Shown: positions 674 to 19,920, counted from the stretch's first letter. The stretch is DNA of 20,000 nt from Proteromonas lacertae (GCA_002245135.1 NGBS01001205.1:44297-64296), one strand, 5' to 3'. Numbers and translations: made by a program. Notes: generated from the sequence alone by a model not told the origin.

Positions 674-808
674 ATAAAGTAATTAACTGGTTAAAATATT
701 CTTTTATATATATTGTGAATATAATAGTACTACTTTACTTATACTTTTTATCAACATAATAGTGCTAAAGAATTCAGCTGGGCTAAAGTTATTTGTTGTA
801 CTTACAAG

Positions 809-1267
809 TATTGGATTAAGAGGACTGAAGTATTTAGCATTGAATAAAAGTATAATACCAGATCCTTCAATCAACATCTTAACCTGGTCTGAATGATGAA
901 TATTTTCATTGTCCATAAAAAAGCAGAATTTACCTTTTAGTTTTAGATCATCTAATAAGTACTTAAAGTATGTTGTAAATACCTCATAGTAGCTATAATT
1001 GTAATATCAGTAGCACCTCTTGCCATGTGAACGATTGGTGTTGTTCCTTCGACAGACCTTGCACATCCATTTACAAGTCCCATGCTCCAATGAGTGTCAT
1101 CTAAGTAAATTGAACGAAAACCATGTCTAGTATAATATCTTAATAATTTAATATCTTCAATTCTTTCCTTTAGTAATGTTGTATTCTGTCATTCTTTTGT
1201 TGCGATCACGACAAATAGTTGATTTAGATAAATGCTTACCAGTTTCTGTGAAGATTTTTTCTTTTAA
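809..1267 (-). pseudogene. IS630/Tc1-mariner-type transposase remnant (winged HTH plus DDE domain), frameshifted and truncated
   Basis: Minus-strand pieces across frames: LKEKIFTETGKHLSKSTICR (HTH), RSIYLDDTHWSMG..ARSVEGTTPIV..RGATDITIIATM (first catalytic D region), CFFMDNENIHH..LLFNAKYFSPLNPI (DN-xx-H and YSP-LNPIE-like motifs, cut just before the E). Includes track ORF 704..916. Confidence 0.85.
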
Positions 1268-1309
1268 AAAATATAAGTATTATGCAATATTGTACAAGTA
1301 AGTTGCAAA

Positions 1310-1470
1310 ACACTATAAGAAGAAATATATGTTGCAACAAGCAGTCGGCTTGAGTTTATCTTTATAAGTAATTGTTAGTTTGTTTATTTTTCAATCTCTA
1401 TATACTTTATAATACACATAAATTAGCACTAATACAAATTCCATTTCTATTTAATAAGCGTAATTTTTAT
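1310..1470 (-). repeat. Diverged inverted copy of the region upstream of the GT10 gene (partner ~2410-2570)
   Basis: Reverse complement aaatggaatttgtattagtgctaatttatgtgtattataaagtata aligns with aaatggaatttgtgttgttgctaaattatgtgtattaaatagtata at ~2435-2478. Weaker similarity extends toward the GT10 ATG. Confidence 0.75.
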
Positions 1471-1675
1471 ACAATATATTAAGCATCAATAGCAATAGTA
1501 GAAAATGAAATTAAGGTTGTAAAATAAATAGAACTTAATAACTTTAATTTATTAATACTTAATATTGAAATTGAAAAAGCAAGCTTAAAAAGGCATTAAA
1601 TAGAATAGAAGTTTTAAGAAACTGTGTTATAGATTCAGATGTTAAGAACTTAATAACTATTCATAAAGTACATGC

Positions 1676-2305
1676 TGCTACGCAATGTTTGTCATAGTTG
1701 GCCGTTTGTCTACCAGACACATTTAAAACAAATTAAATGTATATTCTTACTTGTCTTGATGAAATATTGTTACTTTTATACTTACTTTGTTATGTGCCCT
1801 GCCTCTATAGTATACTTTTTTGTTAATATAAATAGTTTGAATATTTGCGCCGTTTGTTTTCTAGAACTTTTTGAAGCAAACTAAATACATATTTAACTAA
1901 TATAGACTAAAATACATTAGATGAAATGATTAGTACAACTTAATGTTGATCCTAAGACATTTAAAATGAAAAAAGAAAATATAGAATCAAGCCTTACTCG
2001 AGCCTATTTTTTCATTTCTTTTTATATAGAATTTTATAATTAATATATTCTAATCATTTCAGCTAATGTATTTTAGTCTGCATTAGCTAAATATGCATTT
2101 AGTTTGCTTCAAAAATTTATAGAAAACAAAAGGCACAAATATTCAAACTATTTATATTAACAAAAAAGTATACTGCAGAGGTAGGTCATATAACAAAGTA
2201 AGTATATAAGTAACAATATTTCATCAAGACAAGTAAGAATATACATTTAGTTTGTTTTAAAAGTGTCTAATAGACAAACGGCCAACTATGAAACGGCACA
2301 CAACA
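1676..2305. mobile_element. Foldback / long-TIR non-autonomous element E1 (~630 bp)
   Basis: Imperfect inverted arms ~1676-1933 and ~2050-2305 (e.g. catagttggccgtttgtcta / tagacaaacggccaactatg), ~116-bp asymmetric spacer, TG..CA ends, no coding capacity, no matching flanks. Confidence 0.9.
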
Positions 2306-2555
2306 TTTTTTTATAAAATGTGCAATTTCTATAGTTGTTGTTAAAAAACGAAAAACTTGATGCAACAGAAAAGCTTGATTTAGTTTTTTCATTTTTCTAT
2401 TATTTAGAAAAAATAATTACAGTTATTGAATAAAAATGGAATTTGTGTTGTTGCTAAATTATGTGTATTAAATAGTATAAAAATTCTCAAATACAAACAA
2501 ACAAAAAATAATAATAAAAATTCGAACCTTCTATAAATAAGATATATTTTCTATT

Positions 2556-3551
2556 ATGAAGTATTTTAATATGAAGTTAATAATGTTTGTTTTTTTATTT
2601 ATTATAGTTGGGTATAAAATCAACAAGACAAATACTATTCATATAAATATTTACTATATGAAAAAATTATTTTTGATTAATACTAGTCTACATAATTGCG
2701 GAAATCTAAAGTGCTATTTGTCAAAATATAATAATTCAAATTATAATGCTATTATTTATAGTATTAATGACATAAATGTGCAAATAAATAAAGATAAAAA
2801 AAGAATATATATGTTATGCAACACAGAAGCTTTAAGTAGATGGAAAAACACAAAAAGAATTATTGATGGTAATAATGAAAAATTTGACGTTTTAATTAGT
2901 TATAAACTTCTCATATCAAAACATCATTTTTCATATCCATATTACAAGAATATTGACAATATTATTAATGATGGAAAAGAATCCATAAAGTCAATTGATA
3001 ACTTTATGAAAAGAAAAGATATTGTGTTTATTTATAGACAACCATACAAAAATAGAAACAGATTGTGTGTCATGTTTGAAAAAAGGATGAAAGTAGATAA
3101 ATATGGCTTAGCATTTAAGAATCATCTTAAATGGCCTGATAATATAACCAATCAAAAATATTTATTAATAAGAAATTATAAATTCTGTTTGGCAATTGAA
3201 AATACTATTAATCAAGTGAAATGGGGTCAACTACATTCAGATCCAATTGATGATGATTATGTAACAGAAAAATTATGGGATTGTATGAGAGGAGGATCAA
3301 TTCCCATATATTTTGGAGCTAAAAATGTTGATAAATTTTATCCAACTAATTTTTCAATAATTAATGCAAAAGATTATAAAAACTACACAGAACTAATAAA
3401 TTATGTATATTCAATAAGAAATAATAAAACAATACTTGCACAGTATATTAACTGGCCTTACAATTATTCTAAAGAATGGTATAATAGAATGATAAAATTT
3501 TCCACATCACCTTGTAAATTATGTAAATACATTAAAAATTATTATAATTGA
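2556..3551 (+). CDS. GT10-family alpha-1,3/1,4-fucosyltransferase, intronless
   Basis: N-terminal signal anchor and the GT10 signature YKFCLAIEN...DDYVTEKLWDCMRGGSIPIYFGA...SIINAKDY. Confidence 0.92.
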   Translation: MKYFNMKLIMFVFLFIIVGYKINKTNTIHINIYYMKKLFLINTSLHNCGNLKCYLSKYNNSNYNAIIYSINDINVQINKDKKRIYMLCNTEALSRWKNTKRIIDGNNEKFDVLISYKLLISKHHFSYPYYKNIDNIINDGKESIKSIDNFMKRKDIVFIYRQPYKNRNRLCVMFEKRMKVDKYGLAFKNHLKWPDNITNQKYLLIRNYKFCLAIENTINQVKWGQLHSDPIDDDYVTEKLWDCMRGGSIPIYFGAKNVDKFYPTNFSIINAKDYKNYTELINYVYSIRNNKTILAQYINWPYNYSKEWYNRMIKFSTSPCKLCKYIKNYYN

Positions 3552-3631
3552 TAATTAAAATAATATAAGGTAAGAGATTTTAGCATGTTTTAGCATATGT
3601 TTCATTTTGTAAAGATCTCCAAATATATATG

Positions 3632-4900
3632 TCAAAATATAGAAGTTTCTAAATCACTAAACGACTTATTTGTTTGGTGTATTATACCAACTTCAAAATA
3701 AGGAACATTACTATTATGTTCATTGGTAGATCTTAGCTCATCAATTAATCTATTTATATTACTAAGTCTAGTACCTATAAATGCAATACATCTTAGTGAC
3801 AGTTGTATGTCACTAATCACGTTAAGTAAATGATTATTTTTCCAGTTATTATTTCCATCATTGTATCTAGAATAATTTAAATAAAACACGTTATAATCTG
3901 AATTTATAAAAGTATTTATTGTATTTCTATCATCAGTTGATAAATAAACATTAAATTTTCTTTTAATTAATCTGCGAAATAATTCTATTGCTACAAAATA
4001 TTTCTTTGTATCAATTAACTTCATTTCAATATATTTATCTCCATGTCTTACCCATACATTAATGCAAGGATATTTATAGATGTTTTTGCAGTTAAAGTTA
4101 CATTTTATTAAATTCTTAATTAGATTGTTTGAAGTGTCAATAGTTTTTGTGTTTAAATTATATATGTATTTTGATAGTTGTGTGTTCCAATAATGTCTAT
4201 AATATGATGGAGATATAGATGATAACTGTAGATATTTCTGAACTTTATGTGGAACAGGAGAAACGTTGTAGTTACAAATATTTGGTAGAACAAATTTTTC
4301 ATTTCCGTATGCATCTTTTGATATATTTTTTATTATAGTATAGTATATACTACAATTTGACAATTGTAAAAAATATTTGCTAATATAAGTAGAATGAATT
4401 AATACAACCCTATTCGTATTAATAGCCAATGAAAGATAACAACCAAAAGCATGAATAGCAGCACCAAAACCAAATTTCCAATTTGGTATAATTAAATAAT
4501 TCTGATTATCACATGAAATAGGATGTTGTGATTTAAAAATTATACTTTGAATAAAGTTAGTTCCTTCTAATTCATTAGAGAAGTTACTACAAACATATTT
4601 CCCTGATTTATATGATCTATGTGTTTTTATTTCTCCATTATTATAGCATATAATATAATGAGATATATGTAATATTGTTTCGCATAGCTGACAATCTGAA
4701 GAATCTAACAACCTTTTATAATATTCATATCCATTTGTGTTTACATTATATATTATATTTGAACTGTTACAGTTTTCACGATTTATTATTCTCTTACATT
4801 CTTTGTATATGAAACTAAAATTTATGTTGTTTTTAATTTTTATGATATGATAAAATATTACACAAATGAATGTAATAATTAAAATGACTATACATTTCAT
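3632..4900 (-). CDS. GT23-like (FUT8/NodZ-type) alpha-1,6-fucosyltransferase, intronless
   Basis: Signal anchor; GFGAAIH..LSLAINTNRVVL; motif I VWVRHGDKYIE; motif II VYLSTDD; motif III DIQLSLRCIAFIGTRLSNINRLIDELR. Confidence 0.88.
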   Translation of the reverse strand: MKCIVILIITFICVIFYHIIKIKNNINFSFIYKECKRIINRENCNSSNIIYNVNTNGYEYYKRLLDSSDCQLCETILHISHYIICYNNGEIKTHRSYKSGKYVCSNFSNELEGTNFIQSIIFKSQHPISCDNQNYLIIPNWKFGFGAAIHAFGCYLSLAINTNRVVLIHSTYISKYFLQLSNCSIYYTIIKNISKDAYGNEKFVLPNICNYNVSPVPHKVQKYLQLSSISPSYYRHYWNTQLSKYIYNLNTKTIDTSNNLIKNLIKCNFNCKNIYKYPCINVWVRHGDKYIEMKLIDTKKYFVAIELFRRLIKRKFNVYLSTDDRNTINTFINSDYNVFYLNYSRYNDGNNNWKNNHLLNVISDIQLSLRCIAFIGTRLSNINRLIDELRSTNEHNSNVPYFEVGIIHQTNKSFSDLETSIF

Positions 4901-5051
4901 TAGTTTTCCATAATCAACCTCTTAATCTCATCAAAATTCTTTGTTGATTATGGTATATAATATTCATATAACATTTATAGACAATGCTTTACTTAAATTT
5001 AAGCAAAACTACAGTAATTTCTTCAATGTGCAACCTTGGTCATGAACATTG

Positions 5052-5148
5052 AGACTAAAATACACAACCAAGGTGAGGAGTACTGCATAGGCTTGTTTTA
5101 AAAGTGTCTAATAGACAAACGGCCAACTATGACAAACGGCGCACAGCA
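5052..5148. mobile_element. Deleted remnant (solo end) E3 of the E1 foldback family
   Basis: 5093-5148 (ttgttttaaaagtgtctaatagacaaacggccaactatgacaaacggcgcacagca) matches the E1 right end at 2252-2305. 5052-5064 (agactaaaataca) matches E1 1904-1916. Confidence 0.88.
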
Positions 5149-5160
5149 GTTTATATAAAT

Positions 5161-6959
5161 ATGGAATTTAGAAACGATATACAAGAAATCAGAGCAATTG
5201 CTTTTTTATTAGTTTTTATTTATCATCTTAATGATAAAATAATACCAGGAGGTTTTATAGGTGTAGATATCTTTTTTGTTATATCTGGTTTTATAATATC
5301 ACAATCTATTTTTAAACTATATGCTAATTATACAGGACTATATGTGTTTTATTCAAGAAGGATTAAAAGACTATTTCCAAGTAGTATTATTTGTTTGTTG
5401 TGTTATTATTTTTATCACCCTACTGTTACTAAAAATAGCAATGAAGAATTACAACTCTATCATGATATTATATCAGCATTATTATGTTTATCAAATGTTA
5501 GGTTTTATAGAATTACTAAGAGTTATTTTCAAAGTGAAAAGAAATCTATTATTATTAATTATTGGTCTTTATCCCTAGAAGAACAATTTTATATTTTATA
5601 TCCTATTATATATTTCTGTTCTAGAATATTTTATTATTTTAATATTTTGGGATTAGTTATAAGTTTATGTTGTTGTATTATTAATACATATTCAGATGAT
5701 TCCTCATCTTATTATTTGTTACACAATAGAGTATGGGAAATATTGCTAGGATGCATAGTCAGTAAATCTCACCACATTTACTCTTTAAATCCTCAATTAG
5801 TATTATATATAATAATTATATCATCTTATGTAATTGGAATATATACCATTTTAATATTCCCAGGATTTATAGCATTATTTCCAACATTATTAACATCATT
5901 ATTATTAATCCAAAAGAATAAAACACTATATAACTCCAAAATATTATTACAAATTGGAAACATGTCTTATATATTATATTTGTTTCACTATCCCATTATA
6001 CAGAATAACAAAAAATATTATATTATTGTGAGTAAACTTATTATAATTACATACATGATATACTCATATATAGAACTACCTGTAAGAAATTTTAATAATT
6101 TCAATTATATAAATATATCATGTTTTATTTCATTATATTTGTTTATAATAACTCTCCGTTATTCAATAAGAAATAGTAGAAAAGAAAAAATGATAAATAT
6201 ATATAATGCAACTACATTTTGTACAGCAAAGCAGTGTAATAATTATACAACTCAGCTAATTCAAAAAACCCTTTTACTAATAGGTGATTCTCACCTGCTT
6301 CAATATTTATATGTAATTATAAAAGTAGTAAGTAATTATAATATAAATAATATCCTTATTATATTAACATGGATAATAAATATAGAGAAAAATTACATAT
6401 CTATTTCAAATTTCATTAAAAGCTTAAATAATGTTAAGATGTGTATGATATCGTTATATGTAGATTATGCTTTTCAGTTTGCAGATAAAAAGACATTTGA
6501 AAAAGGATTTATATATATTATTGAAAATATATTAAATTTAACTAAAGGTATAATTATATTTCAAGATAATATAATTACATATATACTTAATAATACAAAA
6601 AATATTTACTTCCTATATTAAACAATAAAAAAATTACATATATAGATATTTTTAATTCATATTGCAAAGGAAAGGAACACTGTTTAGATAATATATATTC
6701 TAAAACTATTTTTATGGACATGAATCATTTAAATAAAGAATTTGTATGTAAATCAGTATTAATCTTTAAACTAATAAATGAAGCAGTAGAAATATATTTA
6801 AATAAAACTAATTACATAGATGTGGAATGTTATTTATTAGATATCAAGACATATTCCAAATATAACTCAGCCATATTAAAGAAATATAATATAATTACAA
6901 TGAAAAATATTAGGAGTAATATGTTTGGTTTTATTCATATGCCAAGTTTCAATTATTAA
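5161..6959 (+). CDS. OafA/YrhL-like O-acetyltransferase (acyltransferase-3 membrane domain + SGNH domain), one frameshift
   Basis: MEFRNDIQEIRAIA..H..GGFIGVDIFFVISGFII..RRIKRLFP..YWSLSLEEQFYIL..GNMSYILYLFHYPI, then SGNH LIGDSH. Adding one A to the A6 run at 6597-6602 joins the frame of track ORF 6714..6959, giving ..YIDIFNSYCKGKEHC..FMDMNHL (DxxH). The exact 3' end is uncertain. Confidence 0.88.
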
Positions 6960-7048
6960 TAAGACTAAATTAGTTCAAACCTAACAAATTTAGTAAAAAT
7001 GAATATTTACTTTACCAGAAGGTGAATTAGATATATTTCTTCCAATGG

Positions 7049-7330
7049 AAACTCAATAGATAAAAATGCAATAAAGGTGTTGAACTGAGTGAAGTAGATT
7101 GTTCTAAATAATTAATTGAAACAAAATAATATTTCTTTTGCTCTTTTGTAAGATATATATGGACTGTAATCTTAATATCATTCTCCTTATTAAGCTTCCT
7201 GTAATAAAATATCCTGACAAAGTAAAGAAAATATCAACACCTATAAATCCTCCCTTAAAATACTTATTCTTTTGATGAAAGTAAAAAACAAAAATCATTG
7301 CAAAAAATCGAACAGATTGTTATTATTTCT
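7049..7330 (-). pseudogene. Third OafA-like acyltransferase, heavily deleted relic
   Basis: QSVRFFAMIFVFYFH..KGGFIGVDIFFTLSGYFITGSL, then other-frame pieces PLLHF and LSIEF (from the HxWSLSIExQ motif). It directly abuts the stop of the upstream paralogue. Confidence 0.85.
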
Positions 7331-9053
7331 TAACAACCTCTGTAGTAGTATTTTCCATGAATATAAAAATTACACAATTTTATTGTTTTCTTTTCTTTCA
7401 TCTTAATATTTAGTGTTTGTGAAAATATTATATTGAAATCATTACAAAATTTTGATGTAAAGAGAGGTGATAAATGTGAAGCTGTATCATACACACTTAT
7501 TCTATTTATTATACATTTGCATATGCCATTTTTACATATATCATTATTGAAAGAAATATAAAGTGTGTTATTAATTTCAGGTATAAATTTACGATGTAAA
7601 GTGCAATTAATACCATCTACCATATAGCAGTATTTGCTATGATGTTCATAACATTGTAAACATATATTATTATTCTTTAGCTTAGGACTATCTTCAATAA
7701 AAATTGATTTAGGAATAAATGAGTTATAATATTTTATCATATTAACAATTTTTGATGTTATTGTATTAATATTATCACTCATGTCATGTATTACAAAACC
7801 GAAAATTACTAACATCCAATGAACGTTATTATTATTAAAGTACTTATTATAAATTACCATATAATCATCAACATATAAGTGAAAGTAAAAATAATGCATC
7901 ATTATACCTTTAGATCGAATATAAGGAAGCATTGCAGGAATCCATTGTTCTAAATGAGAATCTCCAACCAATAATATATTTCTATTTGATAGAACATCTT
8001 TTTTTGTCAAATGACAGTGGCTACACCATAATTTAATTGATGCTTTGTTACTCTGTCTCACAATATTTATATTCTCATCTATTTTTTTTGTAGATATAAT
8101 GTCTCTAATTTTAATCCATACCAATATAAAGCATATAGTTATAATTATTATAATAAATCTACCATATTTTCTAATATTGTTTTCTATAAAGTAATCATTA
8201 ATTACTGCAGTAAATAGTGAATAAATAATTCCATTTACAACTTTATAATTGTTGTTGCAATAAATATAATGATATAAATATAACGAATATGATATTTTTC
8301 CAAAGAAAATCATTGTTTTATTTATCACCATGCCATCATTTATTAGTATGTAATTATTACATACGTTACTAGATATTATAGATACTACTATGATATTTAT
8401 AATTATATAATAGAGTTTATAAATATTCAAAATAATAATTAGAAATATTGCTAAATAGGTGTTGATATTAATTTTGAATTTTGTTATTATTGAAAGTAAA
8501 TAATACCAGATTCTAATTAAAGTATTATAATAATAATAATTATCTACACAATATAATTCACAAATCAAATCATATGAAAATGAAAGAATAATAACAATAT
8601 AAAATATAAATTCGTTTATATTCATTCCTTTGAGTAATAAAAGAATAATGTATAGTTGAAATATAACAGAAATATACCATAGATGAAGGAAAGATGAATT
8701 ATTCTCTTTTAGAAAATAATCACTACCGCTATATATCAATCTAACATTAAAAGTAAATGTTAATGCACATAATATATCAATCACTTCTTTTTCATTAATT
8801 ATATTTTGTTTAGTAATATATAATGTAATGATTAATAAAAATAAGTAATAACTAGGAGATATTCTTTTGTATCTAGAGAGGATGCTTTTTAATAATGAAT
8901 TATCGGACTTAGTAAATGATAAATATCCTGATATATTTATAAATACAATTACACCAACATAACCATATTTAAATACTGATATATTACTATGATAAAAACA
9001 ATAAATAGAATTGAATAACCTTTTAATACTTCTAAATCATTTCTATAATTCAT
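7330..9053 (-). CDS. Second OafA/YrhL-like O-acetyltransferase (AT3 + SGNH), one frameshift near the 5' end
   Basis: ATG at 9053 gives MNYRNDLEVLKGYSILFIV. One extra base in the A5 run at 8994-8998 restores FYH..GYVGVIVFINISGYL..RYKRISP into track ORF 7330..8784 (LHLWYISVIFQLY, GKISYSLYLYHY, LVGDSHLEQW, YDTASHLS). Confidence 0.88.
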
Positions 9054-9221
9054 ATAATTTTCTTAATACCACTAATTAAGTTTGGCATTTCTGTGGTTAT
9101 ATAAATAATGTCTGTAATATATTATTTTGTTTTTAATGTTTTGATAACCACATTTGTCGAAACAGTAAGAATAGCACCTATGTCTGTCATTCACTACTAG
9201 AGATTATGAACTGTTGTTGTG

Positions 9222-9858
9222 TGTTGTTCCCCGTATGGCGGAAATCCCCGTATGGCGGAACTCTATATTCCAGAATGATTCAATCAAAACTAATATGATA
9301 TTCATGATGTTCGGAGTTAGTTATTAACAAATATATAGTTAGTTTGTCATATGACCTACATCTGTGATATACTTATTTATGAACTTCATTGTTCTCAATA
9401 TTAAACTAATTTTCTTATATTTTCTATTTTAATGTATCATTGACTACTATAGTCTAAAATACATTATTTGATATGAAAAGAATACAATAATTTTAATGTT
9501 AAGGCAGTAAAAATAAATTTAACAACTGGCTTGAGAGAGGCTTGAATATATTTTTTCTTTTTTCTGTTTTCTGTACTTTAACATAAAAAATAATGTATTC
9601 TATTTATATCAGATAATGTATTTTAGACTGTAGTAGTCAATGATACATTAAAATAGAAAATATACAAAAATTAGTTTAATATTGAGAATAATGAAGTTCA
9701 TAAAAAAGTATATCACAGATGTAGGTCATATGACAAACTAACTATATATTTGTTAATAACTAACTCCGAACATCATGAATATCATATTAGTTTTGATTGA
9801 ATCATTCTGGAATATAGAGTTCCGCCATACGGGGATTTCCGCCATACGGGGAACAACA
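9222..9858. mobile_element. Foldback / long-TIR non-autonomous element E2 (~637 bp)
   Basis: Inverted arms ~9222-9507 and ~9571-9858. The outer ~150 bp are perfectly complementary (first mismatch at 9375). End sequence TGTTGTTC-CCCGTATGGCGGAAATC-CCCGTATGGCGGAACTC; ~63-bp spacer. Confidence 0.95.
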
Positions 9859-10104
9859 CTTTCCACACATCTAATAACAAATCTCACATTCTACTATTCA
9901 TCTTTACTAGTTTTCCACTCTTCCACCTCTTTCTTTCGGTACTACCGAATCGGTAGTAATGTATTGCTTTAAAATGTTATTCACTGAAGAGCGACTAACG
10001 TTGAACACTCTTGCAGCTTCCTCTGTTGATTTACTCTCTTCAATACAATATCTGACCATCATTTTTCTAATATTCACTTCTATGGCATTTCCTTTAGCTG
10101 GCAT
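9859..10104 (-). pseudogene. N-terminal HTH fragment of an IS630/Tc1-type transposase, interrupted by E2
   Basis: MPAKGNAIEVNIRKMMVRYCIEESKSTEEAARVFNVSRSSVNNILKQYITTDSVVPKERGGR: paired-like HTH followed by a GGR linker, then stops and frameshifts up to the E2 boundary. Confidence 0.8.
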
Positions 10105-10686: not shown

Positions 10687-13373
10687 TCACTTTCTTCTCT
10701 TATGACCATTAGGTACAACTTCATAAACTGCCCATCTTCTATTATTATCTTGACCTGATGGTTTGCTTTCACTACATAAATTATCTACACAACCACACGA
10801 TTTTGATCTATCATCATTGCAAGGTCTTTCACATCCACCATTGTTCTTTGGACGATCTGGAGTACTTAATAACTTATTAAATACGAAACTATGACCATCA
10901 GAATATGCTTTAGCTATTCCAAAATATCGTTTATTCATTCGAATTGCATCACCTTTTGCTAATTCGAAATTTGCACCACTTGCTCCTCCTATATATTGTT
11001 TATCTTCACTAAATTCATTCTCATCTGTATAACAACCTACATATTTTACTCTCACATTATCTTCATCATTCTTTCGTCCATTATAAATCTTATAACTTTC
11101 ACTCACTTTCTTTTCTAATTGATTAGTGTGAATGAAATTTTCAGGTTTTTTCACTTTAAATATTCTCAATATCCAATGTTCACTGGTAAATGCTTCATCA
11201 AAATATCTTAATTTTATATTCTTTACACCAACTTCAGCTTGTCTAACCATATCATAACCAGCTGGTCTTGATGGATGAATTCGAACTTCACCAAATCTAT
11301 AATAACTCAATTTATACATCAAACAATTCTTCATTGTTTCAGAAGCACCAGCATCAATTCGATATTGACCATCAGCAAAGTAATTTGGTTCTTGAATCTC
11401 ATCAGGATATACACCACCACCTATTCGAACCATCCATAAGAATTTATTAACATCATCACTACTATAACCACTATAACCACCAAATACAACTAATACATAA
11501 TCTACATCTAAACTCAGAATGATTGGATATGCTTTATCTTCAGCTGAACTCATTGCTCTTCCTACTGTAGCTATGTGAGTATTATTCCAAGTATTATTAT
11601 CAACAATTACTGTTCGATTACCCATTCCTGCCATTTGATATCCATAATCCCACCAACTCATGAATTTAGCATTCGGATCAGTATTCATTCTCATCCAATA
11701 ATAAGCTTCTCGGAAATCATCTAAGATTACTCGACTTCCATCACTTCTACGACTGGCTAATACAATTGAAGGAGAACTGTAAGCTTCTGCTGCTACATAT
11801 ACTGCATGAAATCCATATAATACCATAAAGAATGCCATTGTACCTATCACAGTTGTAGCTACTAATGTTGAACTATTTTCTGAATTAGATATTGATCCAT
11901 CATTGTTATTGTTCTTTTTATCTTTTCTAGACATTGATTTATAAGTACTTTGTACATTGTATTTGATTATTGCTGAGAATTTTCTCAAAACTGCACTAAA
12001 TCCAATAGATGCTAAGATACAAGCAGCTGGAGCTAAAGTCAACATTAATCTAACCATCACACCTGCAAAATACCAAGATAATGTTCCATAGAGAATAAGG
12101 AAAATTGTACCATCACTCACTTCATCAAATAGTAAATACAGACCTAATGGAGCTACAGGAACTAAAATATGTAAATCAAAGAAGAAACTAGACCAAGTGG
12201 TTGGTTGATGTTCTGATACTGAAGCAATAATTGGAATATATTTCTTTGCATAAGTTGGATCTAATAATGTTAAACTACGACCAGTCCATTGAGTTCGACC
12301 TGTTAATTGTAAGAATATTAAACCACCTCCTACAAATCCAATTATTATTAAGAATACTAATCTTACTAAAGTATTGAATAATTTATCTGTTAATTTCTCT
12401 TTTAATGTTAAAGTAAACATATATACTATATATATATATTATATTATTATATTCATTATATATATACATTGTAATAAGATGAAAATACCATGAGAAGCAG
12501 CACATTCAGCTTGTTGAATTACATTAAATCCAACAAATGGTACTTGCATTGCCAATAATGATCCTAATACATAAAATACACTGTATGCAGTGTATAATCT
12601 ATTACCACATCTACCTGCTAATATCATTACTAATACATATATTGGTATAATATTAATAATGAATATATAACCACCCCAAGATGCTACCATATAGAAGTAA
12701 GATAATGCACACATTGCACTCCATATTAAACTACCTGTATTTACAGCTTTAACCCATAAATAGAAGCAGAATATCAATGCAAAGATAGCTACACCTTCAT
12801 TATCATAACTACCTCCTACTGATCTTGAGATATAAGATGGAACAATGGCAATAAATGCTGCTCCTAATAATGCAGTGTTTGATCTGGTTGTTGCTTCTTT
12901 GATTAATAGGTATGTTGCAATGGCACAGTTTGATGCGAATATTGGAGCTAAAAACACACACATGTTTCTCACGTTGATTGAAATGTTGATGAAATTGAGA
13001 AGATAATGCATTACAGCTGCTGTTGCCATTAATCCAGGGTAAATAGTACCTCCTACAACACGTCCTAATGGATACCAACTACGATTGTCAAACCAATTTA
13101 AGAATTCAAAGAATCCTCCAAAAGTCAAAAATTTGGTTGTTCTGTAGTTGAAATAAGGATCATATTCATGGATAACCTATAGAATGACAAATATTATAGA
13201 GTGTAACATACACTTTCCCATCTAACAACAGCAAATAATCTAACTGCAAAAGCGATGATACAGATGAGTCCAAGAATGAAATATTCAAAAAATGAAACGA
13301 ATCCTGTCTGCACTGTCTCAACTAAAGAGTCATCACTTGATTTTTCTTCTGCTTTCTTCGTTTTACTCTGCAT
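10687..13373 (-). CDS. STT3: Oligosaccharyltransferase catalytic subunit STT3 with C-terminal WSC-like extension (~869 aa, 3 exons)
   Basis: Exons 13373-13212, 13176-12468, 12425-10687 (GT..AG introns of 35 and 42 nt). Motifs VIHEYDPYFNY, SYDNE, SVSEHQPT, WWDYG, DNNTWNNTH, DVNKFLWMVRI. Confidence 0.97.
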
Positions 13374-15385: not shown

Positions 15386-15443
15386 TTTAGAAAGGTTTTT
15401 ATTACCAAGCTTGGGCTTGAATTTGAATATTTTTAAAAACGGA

Positions 15444-18177: not shown

Positions 18178-18399
18178 TGGATGAACTACATAAATGGTTC
18201 TGAGTTTGAATTTTATTATTGTTCATATTATCATCATCATTACAATTAATATTGTTAGTATTAATAATATTTTTGTATTTATTTAATAGATTTTTTAAAA
18301 TAAGTTTGTTACTTTTGGTAATTGTATTTGTTGTATATGATGAGATGATGAAATAGTTTAAAACTATTAATATCTTTTAGGTTGTCATTTGTTGGTAAT

Positions 18400-19920
18400 A
18401 ATGATCTGGTGATGATGATGAATGAGATGATGTTGTATTACTATTATCATTATTATCTACTAGATTCTCATTTTCACATTCTCTATCCATTTCTTTATTA
18501 GAATTATTTTCAACAGATGATGTTCTTTCCTTGTCAATACTATCAGCAGAATTTGATAATTCATTATTTGTTTCAACTGTAGTATTGTTATTACCAATAT
18601 TATTATCATCATCTGGTATAGTTAATAATACATGCAATTGTGGTGATAAATGAGTTGATATTGTATTACTATTATTATCTACTGGATTCTCATTTTCATA
18701 ATCTTCTTCAATGTCATTATCAGAGTTATCATCTGAAGAATTTGATAAGGATGATAATGCATCATCAAAATCACTTCCAGAAGATGACATGTTATTTGTA
18801 ATATATGATGAAGATTTGTTTTTTGATTTAGATCTTAAATTATATTTATGAGAATTTGAATTGATATTTGAGTGTTTTCTAACTCTTTGGTTGATTATTT
18901 GGTTCATAATCATCATCACTATCAGAATCTATATATATTATATAATAACAATTAAGTATACATTTCTCTAATTTTCTTTGTAAGATTTAGAGTTTGTTGG
19001 TGAATGTGTTATTGTTGATTTTGGATCCTTAGAAGCAGAAAGAGTATAATTAAGACAATCTATTTATACTATAATAATATCCAATTATACATCTACTTCT
19101 AGTTTTTTTTGATTTTGTTACAGATTTTATTAAAACTATTGACGATAATTGTGGGATCTCAGTATGTGAATTATCATTATTAATATTCTCATTTGATGGT
19201 GATGATGAATGAGATGATGTTGTATTAATATCATCATTATTATCTAATAGATTCTCATTTTCACATTCTCTTTCCATTTCATTTTCAGAATTACATTCTA
19301 CAGAAAATGGTACAGATGATGTTGTATCATTCATCATACTATTGACATTTACATAATTATTTGTTTCAACAGTGTTAGTATTGTTACTGATATTATTCTC
19401 CTCATTTGTTTGTAATAATGAATGTGGTAATGATGAATGGAATTGATGAATGAGATGAAGTTGTATTGCTATAATTGTCTCTATAATCTAATAAATCTTC
19501 ATTATCACAACGTCTCTCATCTTCTGAAGAAGATAATATGGATGATAATGATTCATTGTCGCTACTATCAGCAAAAGATGATAATTCATCATCGAAATCT
19601 CTTCTGTTAATTGCAATTTCTGGATAAGATATATTTCTTCGCTTAGATTGTAAATTATTATTATGAGAATATGAATTGATATTTGACTGTGTTGTTAATC
19701 TTTCTGAATGATTATTTAGCTCATATCATCATCACTATCAGAATCTACATATATTATATAATAACAATTAGTATACATTTCTCTATATTTTGAGTAGTAG
19801 ATATTGAACTAGTATTATTTGAGTCATTATTAGTACATTGCATTGATTTCGCTAAGGATTTTTTAAAGTTTATAGAATGAATAAACAATGATTGTGGAAT
19901 TTCAGTATGGTTTTTCTTTA
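18400..19920 (-). repeat. Diverged ~800-bp tandem duplication inside a low-complexity coding region, including a duplicated intron
   Basis: EM[DE]RECENENL[VL]DNN..NTTSSHSSS at ~18410-18490 and ~19198-19280. Near-identical introns at 18929-18961 and 19745-19776, each followed by SDSDDD. HTEIPQ at ~19150-19167 and ~19893-19910. Confidence 0.85.

Follow-up and report, generated by a model that had tools for sequence, protein, structure and literature searches.

Background

Repeated sites at the element ends are found in Tn7, Mu and IS21. Among eukaryotic transposons, Ginger elements have tips of the pattern TGTNR, and the Ginger2/TDD group combines terminal inverted repeats (TIRs) of about 45-300 bp with a 4-5-base target-site duplication (TSD) (PMC2836005; the TIRs of TDD-4 and TDD-5 of Dictyostelium measure 260 and 297, Table 2 therein). 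The IS481EU/Banshee elements of parabasalids have the termini TNT..AYA / TGT..ACA, and non-autonomous families of this kind occur in gut protists (PMC10045372). Target duplication is nearly universal among eukaryotic TIR transposons; Spy is a described exception (PMC4122938). Here we analyse a stretch of 20,000 nt of Proteromonas lacertae DNA (GCA_002245135.1 NGBS01001205.1:44297-64296; the window, to which all results refer) that contains two complete foldback elements, E1 and E2. They form a real and apparently undescribed family, probably a variant of the ordinary non-autonomous TIR elements.

E1 and E2 resemble Ginger2/TDD in their arms of 253-293 nt, compared with 260 and 297 in TDD-4 and TDD-5; TGTNR-type tips stand at three of the five ends present in the window, the other two reading TGC. 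The accessible part of the Ginger description (PMC2836005) mentions no one-sided core such as E1 and E2 possess. With IS481EU they share termini of the TNT..AYA / TGT..ACA type and the likely non-autonomous state, but the TIRs of that group are mostly below 50 bp (253 and 293 nt here) and its duplications of ~4, 15 or 25 bases have no counterpart at E1 or E2 (PMC10045372). Like miniature inverted-repeat transposable elements (MITEs) and foldback elements in general, they are short and non-coding, have long inverted arms and are nested in transposon remnants; they differ in lacking a duplication and in an asymmetric core that is kept across subfamilies only about 60-68% alike.

Two foldback elements of one family

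A sequence-only reading had described two palindromes of 630 and 637 nt with inverted arms of about 260-290 bp, and their coordinates, lengths and quoted sequences are present in the window as claimed (Table 1). Their homology is confirmed by blastn (67.7% identity over 319 columns, E 7e-24), and the alignment of the E1 and E2 arms scores 90, with 300 shuffles reaching at most 53. In E2 the outer 153 nt of the arms are identical and all 16 differences lie beyond position 153; therefore E2 is young or homogenised. The arms of E1 differ at 32 positions, 9 of them within the first 16 columns. The longest stop-free stretches in the two elements are 68 and 41 codons. An Rfam search over 1200-10100 gave no matches up to E 1, sigma-70-like sites in E2 are at chance level (6 vs 6.2), and no match was obtained for E1 and E2 among plasmids (blastn) or for the arm pattern in an exact scan of the metagenome and viral (IMG/VR) collections. 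The inner copy of the subterminal ~50 nt in the E1 arms has no equivalent in E2 (score 16 vs 48 in E1).

Table 1. Positions of the foldback elements, their parts and the target of E2 in the window
Feature	Position	Strand	Description
E1 foldback element	1676..2305	+	630 nt, non-coding; arms 1692-1944/2039-2291, 253 nt, 91% complementary
E2 foldback element	9222..9858	-	637 nt, non-coding; arms 9221-9513/9567-9859, 293 nt, 95% complementary
Inner copy of E1 subterminal ~50 nt	1841..1893 (mirror 2090-2142)	+	in E1 left arm; score 48
E1 core	1968..2004	+	A-rich tract, then copies of a 7-mer spaced 11 bases apart; borders one arm on its inner side
E2 core	9528..9564	-	31/37 identical to E1 core
E3, solo E1-type end	5093..5148	+	52/56 identical to E1 right end; both repeats intact
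E0 left arm	1358..1468	+	older inverted repeat around E1
E0 right arm	2412..2521	-	77% to left arm over 111 columns
Third core-like sequence	2355..2402	-	inner edge of E0 right arm, same place as in E1 and E2
E2 target, upstream part	9860..10104	-	N-terminal helix-turn-helix (HTH) of IS630/Tc1-like gene; one frameshift, one stop
E2 target, downstream part	9122..9220	-	probably same broken gene, by collinear alignment; three stops

Element ends

Each of the five ends (those of E1 and E2 and the solo end E3) has an 8-base tip beginning TGT or TGC, reading TGTTG in three and TGCT in two. The ends had been thought to share one design with different motifs; the 8-base tip and the 17-base spacing of the repeats were recovered, and the motifs of the E1 and E2 types proved to be related, as variants of one 10-base word with 7 of 10 bases identical. 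The 9 copies of the merged word in the window all lie within element ends or arms (9/9), and its offsets from the tip are 9 and 26 in the three intact ends. E2 has two intact 17-base repeats at each end. In E1 the tip and the first repeat copy of the left end are decayed and the first repeat of the right end lacks 2 nt; the complete 17-base repeat that had been quoted for E1 was found only in E3. An exact scan of the viral (IMG/VR) and prokaryote collections with the end patterns gave no match.

E3 lies 12 nt upstream of the acyltransferase start codon at 5161. About 20 bases outside the right end of E1 (2306-2330) resemble those outside E3 (5149-5173), a likeness reached in 7 of 2000 shuffles and in 27 of 3994 background windows; it may mean either that E3 was copied along with its flank or that there is a target preference. 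The sequence upstream of E3 shows no significant similarity to E1 (143/200 and 115/200 shuffles).

The shared core and an older foldback

The asymmetric core shared in opposite orientation, a further claim of the sequence-only reading, is clearly present: the two cores align with a score of 58, reached in none of 1000 shuffles, compared with 24 (228/1000) in the same orientation. That the core is better kept than the arms holds for the adjoining arm sequence (31/37 identical positions vs 22-25/40), but not for the arms as a whole, one arm block (33/40) equalling the core (32/40). Conservation between E1 and E2 is patchy, with the same variance reached in 55 and as good a block in 122 of 5000 column permutations. 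The fold of the core is not notable (z -1.9 and -1.5), and the core pattern had no match in an exact scan of the viral, metagenome and prokaryote collections.

E1 is surrounded by an older foldback, E0, the inverted repeat of which scores 139 (maximum of 70 in 200 shuffles). The core-like sequence at the inner edge of its right arm is the best of 37,218 other positions (61, the next scoring 54), and none of 200 shuffled windows reached 61. The E0 arms are not significantly similar to those of E1 and E2 (147/300 and 59/300 shuffles), therefore the core is the sole link of E0 to the family. With E1 taken out, the spacer of E0 is still longer than 200 nt; the core therefore goes with one arm rather than with the centre, and we infer that it was an arm-adjacent piece of a longer parent element. 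The core 7-mer also occurs singly elsewhere, at 1330-1353 (-), just beyond the E0 left arm, and at 15414-15420. The match at the edge of the E0 arm independently supports the conservation of the core. As arm blocks are equally well kept and the instances number only three, the core may at most be suspected of the function proposed earlier.

Insertion sites

E2 lies within a broken transposase gene of IS630/Tc1-like type (minus strand). The part upstream of E2 matches HTH_28 (E 1.4e-5), the IS630 HTH (E 0.006) and, by tblastn, plasmid transposases at 35% (8 records, 6 of them annotated as IS630 or transposase); the downstream part is in register with it against one IS630 protein. E2 thus breaks an IS630/Tc1 remnant with collinear flanks, as expected of an insertion. 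No close homologue of the interrupted gene was found, and the empty site was judged from two distant IS630 proteins. At the junction 2 bases remain. One homologue favours 3-4 additional codons (scores of 99-100 vs 94 for none) and the other favours 1 codon (63 vs 60); because the two disagree on the number, a loss of 7-10 target bases is only weakly hinted at. With the last 7 bases of E2 the host gene would be back in frame, an outcome to be expected by chance in one case out of three.

The location of E2 inside this gene, the solo end E3 and the older foldback E0 with its core match are new here.

TSDs were sought at lengths of 2-40, with mismatches allowed, at exact and shifted boundaries. 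None was present at E1 or E2 (2/2), cross pairings of their ends included, and none at a composite element reaching from the E1 left end to E3 or to the E2 right end; the best direct repeats at the exact boundaries were 10/18 (E1) and 2/5 (E2). The five flanks have no target word in common beyond TTT within one base of three ends, and an inverted repeat formed by the E2 flanks is not supported (14/200 shuffles). No TA pair was found at or near the boundaries of E1 and E2. MITEs of the IS630/Tc1/mariner type, which need a TA duplication, were rejected as candidates.

Proposed mode of transposition

The explanation that we favour, with about an even chance of being right, is that E1 and E2 are diverged copies of one non-coding foldback family, likely non-autonomous cut-and-paste elements that a Ginger2/TDD-type, integrase-like DDE transposase moves in trans, and that their TSDs were probably erased by damage to the ends. 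The two subterminal words (in E1 also a third site, further in) would be the binding sites of the transposase, which would then bring the ends together and cleave at the terminal CA. The specificity of the transposases that serve the two subfamilies would have drifted, and the core would be internal sequence beside one parent arm (a promoter or a left-end accessory site) retained by every deletion derivative. The TSDs would have been lost later, and end damage is plausible because of the decayed tip of E1, the solo end E3 and the hint from the E2 junction. Table S5 of PMC12129017 lists 54 integrase-core proteins for Proteromonas, next to 12 reverse transcriptases and at most one tyrosine-recombinase-like protein, and no Mutator-like element (MULE) domain; such enzymes thus exist there, if the host is Proteromonas-like. 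Three AT-rich tortoise Blastocystis have no integrase-core proteins in the same table, together with 36, 5 and 6 tyrosine-recombinase-like proteins and 26, 4 and 15 MULE domains; the candidate enzyme therefore depends on the host.

Several points weigh against this explanation, the lack of integrase-core proteins in these Blastocystis being one. The TSD is absent from both elements, and end damage must be invoked twice, once per element. Since the outer 153 bases of the E2 arms are identical, a duplication should have outlasted simple decay there, and the junction that might show damage to E2 gives, with its second homologue at 1 codon, just the weak hint described above. Two of the five tips read TGC, not TGT. 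Four of the five ends have one extra outward base in common within their subfamily; therefore the terminus may not be TG and the true end may lie one base further out. No transposase gene with these ends was recognised in the window, the only transposase remnants of which are IS630/Tc1-like. Of the first proposal, one non-autonomous family with subfamily-specific end repeats and a core kept better than its neighbourhood is retained; the integrase-like DDE enzyme stays a proposal, the duplications that define Ginger/TDD and IS481EU being missing from both elements. As the duplication that defines Ginger2/TDD (4-5 bases) is missing, the family may be said to work like Ginger2/TDD, not to be Ginger2/TDD.

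A tentative second explanation takes the missing TSDs at face value: a blunt-cutting transposase or a recombinase inserts the elements with precise joining or with the loss of a few target bases. Both elements lack a duplication, one of them despite perfect outer arms and collinear flanks, and the frame restored by the last 7 bases of E2 hints at a tip resembling its target. Spy is a precedent, with TIRs of up to 1474 bp and no target duplication (PMC4122938), a diatom MULE group is tabulated as 'No TSD' (PMC6446971, Table 1, row 37), and tyrosine-recombinase-like proteins are available in the AT-rich Blastocystis (PMC12129017). However, the AAA|TTT target of Spy, its GGANNNNG start with GG termini and its long TIRs without sub-repeats (PMC4122938) do not fit E1 and E2; apart from the TTT near three ends the flanks offer no common target word, rearrangement of ends is evident here from the solo end and the damaged tip, the frame has in any case one chance in three of being restored, and the complete elements number just two. 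Somewhat less probable again is a novel kind of eukaryotic TG..CA foldback element that inserts without duplication, perhaps at sites like its 7-base tip, and requires a one-sided internal site kept across drifted subfamilies; this site would consist of the tandem 7-mers, one helical turn apart, behind the A-tract.

The remaining readings fit worse than these two, i.e., the favoured explanation and insertion without duplication. An unlikely source is an endogenous Polinton-like virus or virophage whose interior was lost and whose terminal repeats became fused; on this view the tip would serve as a repeat for protein priming, and the core would belong to an origin or promoter. In TGTTGT the tip repeats a 3-base unit in tandem, a feature of protein-primed replicons. 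Such viral elements have TIRs averaging 485-808 bp in a related stramenopile, leave TIR-retaining fragments and are reported in Proteromonas, but they are described with target duplications (bioRxiv 10.64898/2026.07.28.741278), which E1 and E2 lack; four end, arm or core patterns had no match in IMG/VR, and no viral gene was recognised in the window. Still less probable are non-autonomous MULE/foldback elements with long sub-repeated TIRs. The inner sub-repeat in the E1 arm would suit them, MULE TIRs of 14-500 bp that contain promoters are described, and arms of hundreds of bp match (PMC6446971); MULE domains are present in the AT-rich Blastocystis but number zero in Proteromonas (PMC12129017, Table S5), and the 8-11-base duplication is absent at E1 and E2.

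Minimal DIRS-like retroelements (inverted long terminal repeats around a complementary internal region) and an artefact of assembly fold-back are very improbable: DIRS has inverted terminal repeats and an 88-base internal region (PMC7192593) and leaves just a 3-base repeat, but the spacers of E1 and E2 are neither similar nor complementary to the termini (114-486 of 500 shuffles as good, at chance in 8/8 comparisons, which largely refutes the DIRS reading), no 3-base repeat stands at the exact boundaries, and an artefact would not explain a difference of 5-9% between arms, the homology of the two subfamilies or the solo end. Cryptons, described as lacking TIRs and as having 4-6-base direct repeats (PMC3212892), were rejected, E1 and E2 having long TIRs and no direct repeat.

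Genomic context

The window has a GC content of 25.3% and contains genes for STT3, TrmB, WD40, a fucosyltransferase and two acyltransferase-3 proteins, with short introns (one GT..AG intron of 31 nt and two more of about 26 and 42 nt); the host is a eukaryote, presumably a gut stramenopile rich in AT. Among named proteins the best matches of TrmB are fungal, at about 53%. Between E1 and E2, at 2541-9053, lies a cluster of glycan-modifying genes. It comprises the two acyltransferase-3 genes, which face each other, a fucosyltransferase of family GT10 (E 7e-22) and a FUT8/GT23-like protein, for which the Atlas lead is 0.95 with the family given on 35% of members; element ends stand at the borders and in the middle of this cluster. 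A 105-base imperfect palindrome (72%) is located at 6104-6207 within the first acyltransferase gene. STT3 has a cysteine-rich C-terminal extension (10687-11150, -) for which Atlas gave no usable match and which may be WSC-like. Acyltransferase-3 domains number zero in 8/8 Blastocystis and six in Proteromonas (PMC12129017, Table S5).

Just outside the E0 left arm, at 785-1270 (-), there is a broken Tc1/IS630-like DDE transposase gene (Pfam DDE_3, E 1.5e-5), 49-53% identical to intact proteins of 360-379 aa that were found only in Logan assemblies; neither a TIR partner for this gene nor a viral locus for its family was found. At 18385-19791 an imperfect tandem duplication of ~800 bases (71% over 623 columns) has inner sub-repeats and low-complexity frames rich in N, D and S.

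Significance

No description of such a family was found in the literature, a search that lay outside Repbase and Dfam; the main text of the Blastocystis genome paper does not contain 'palindrom' and gives only repeat totals (PMC12129017, section 6, Table S3). MITE-like families still to be described are numerous, and one more is of modest interest; the absent insertion footprint and the one-sided core kept three times stand out. A TG..CA family that inserts without duplication would, if true, suggest a new chemistry of integration, and the pair of subfamilies, in which the end words drifted and the core was kept, would lend itself naturally to testing the co-evolution of transposases and their binding sites. 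Bordering the fucosyl-/acyltransferase cluster, the elements may help to reshuffle surface-modification genes.

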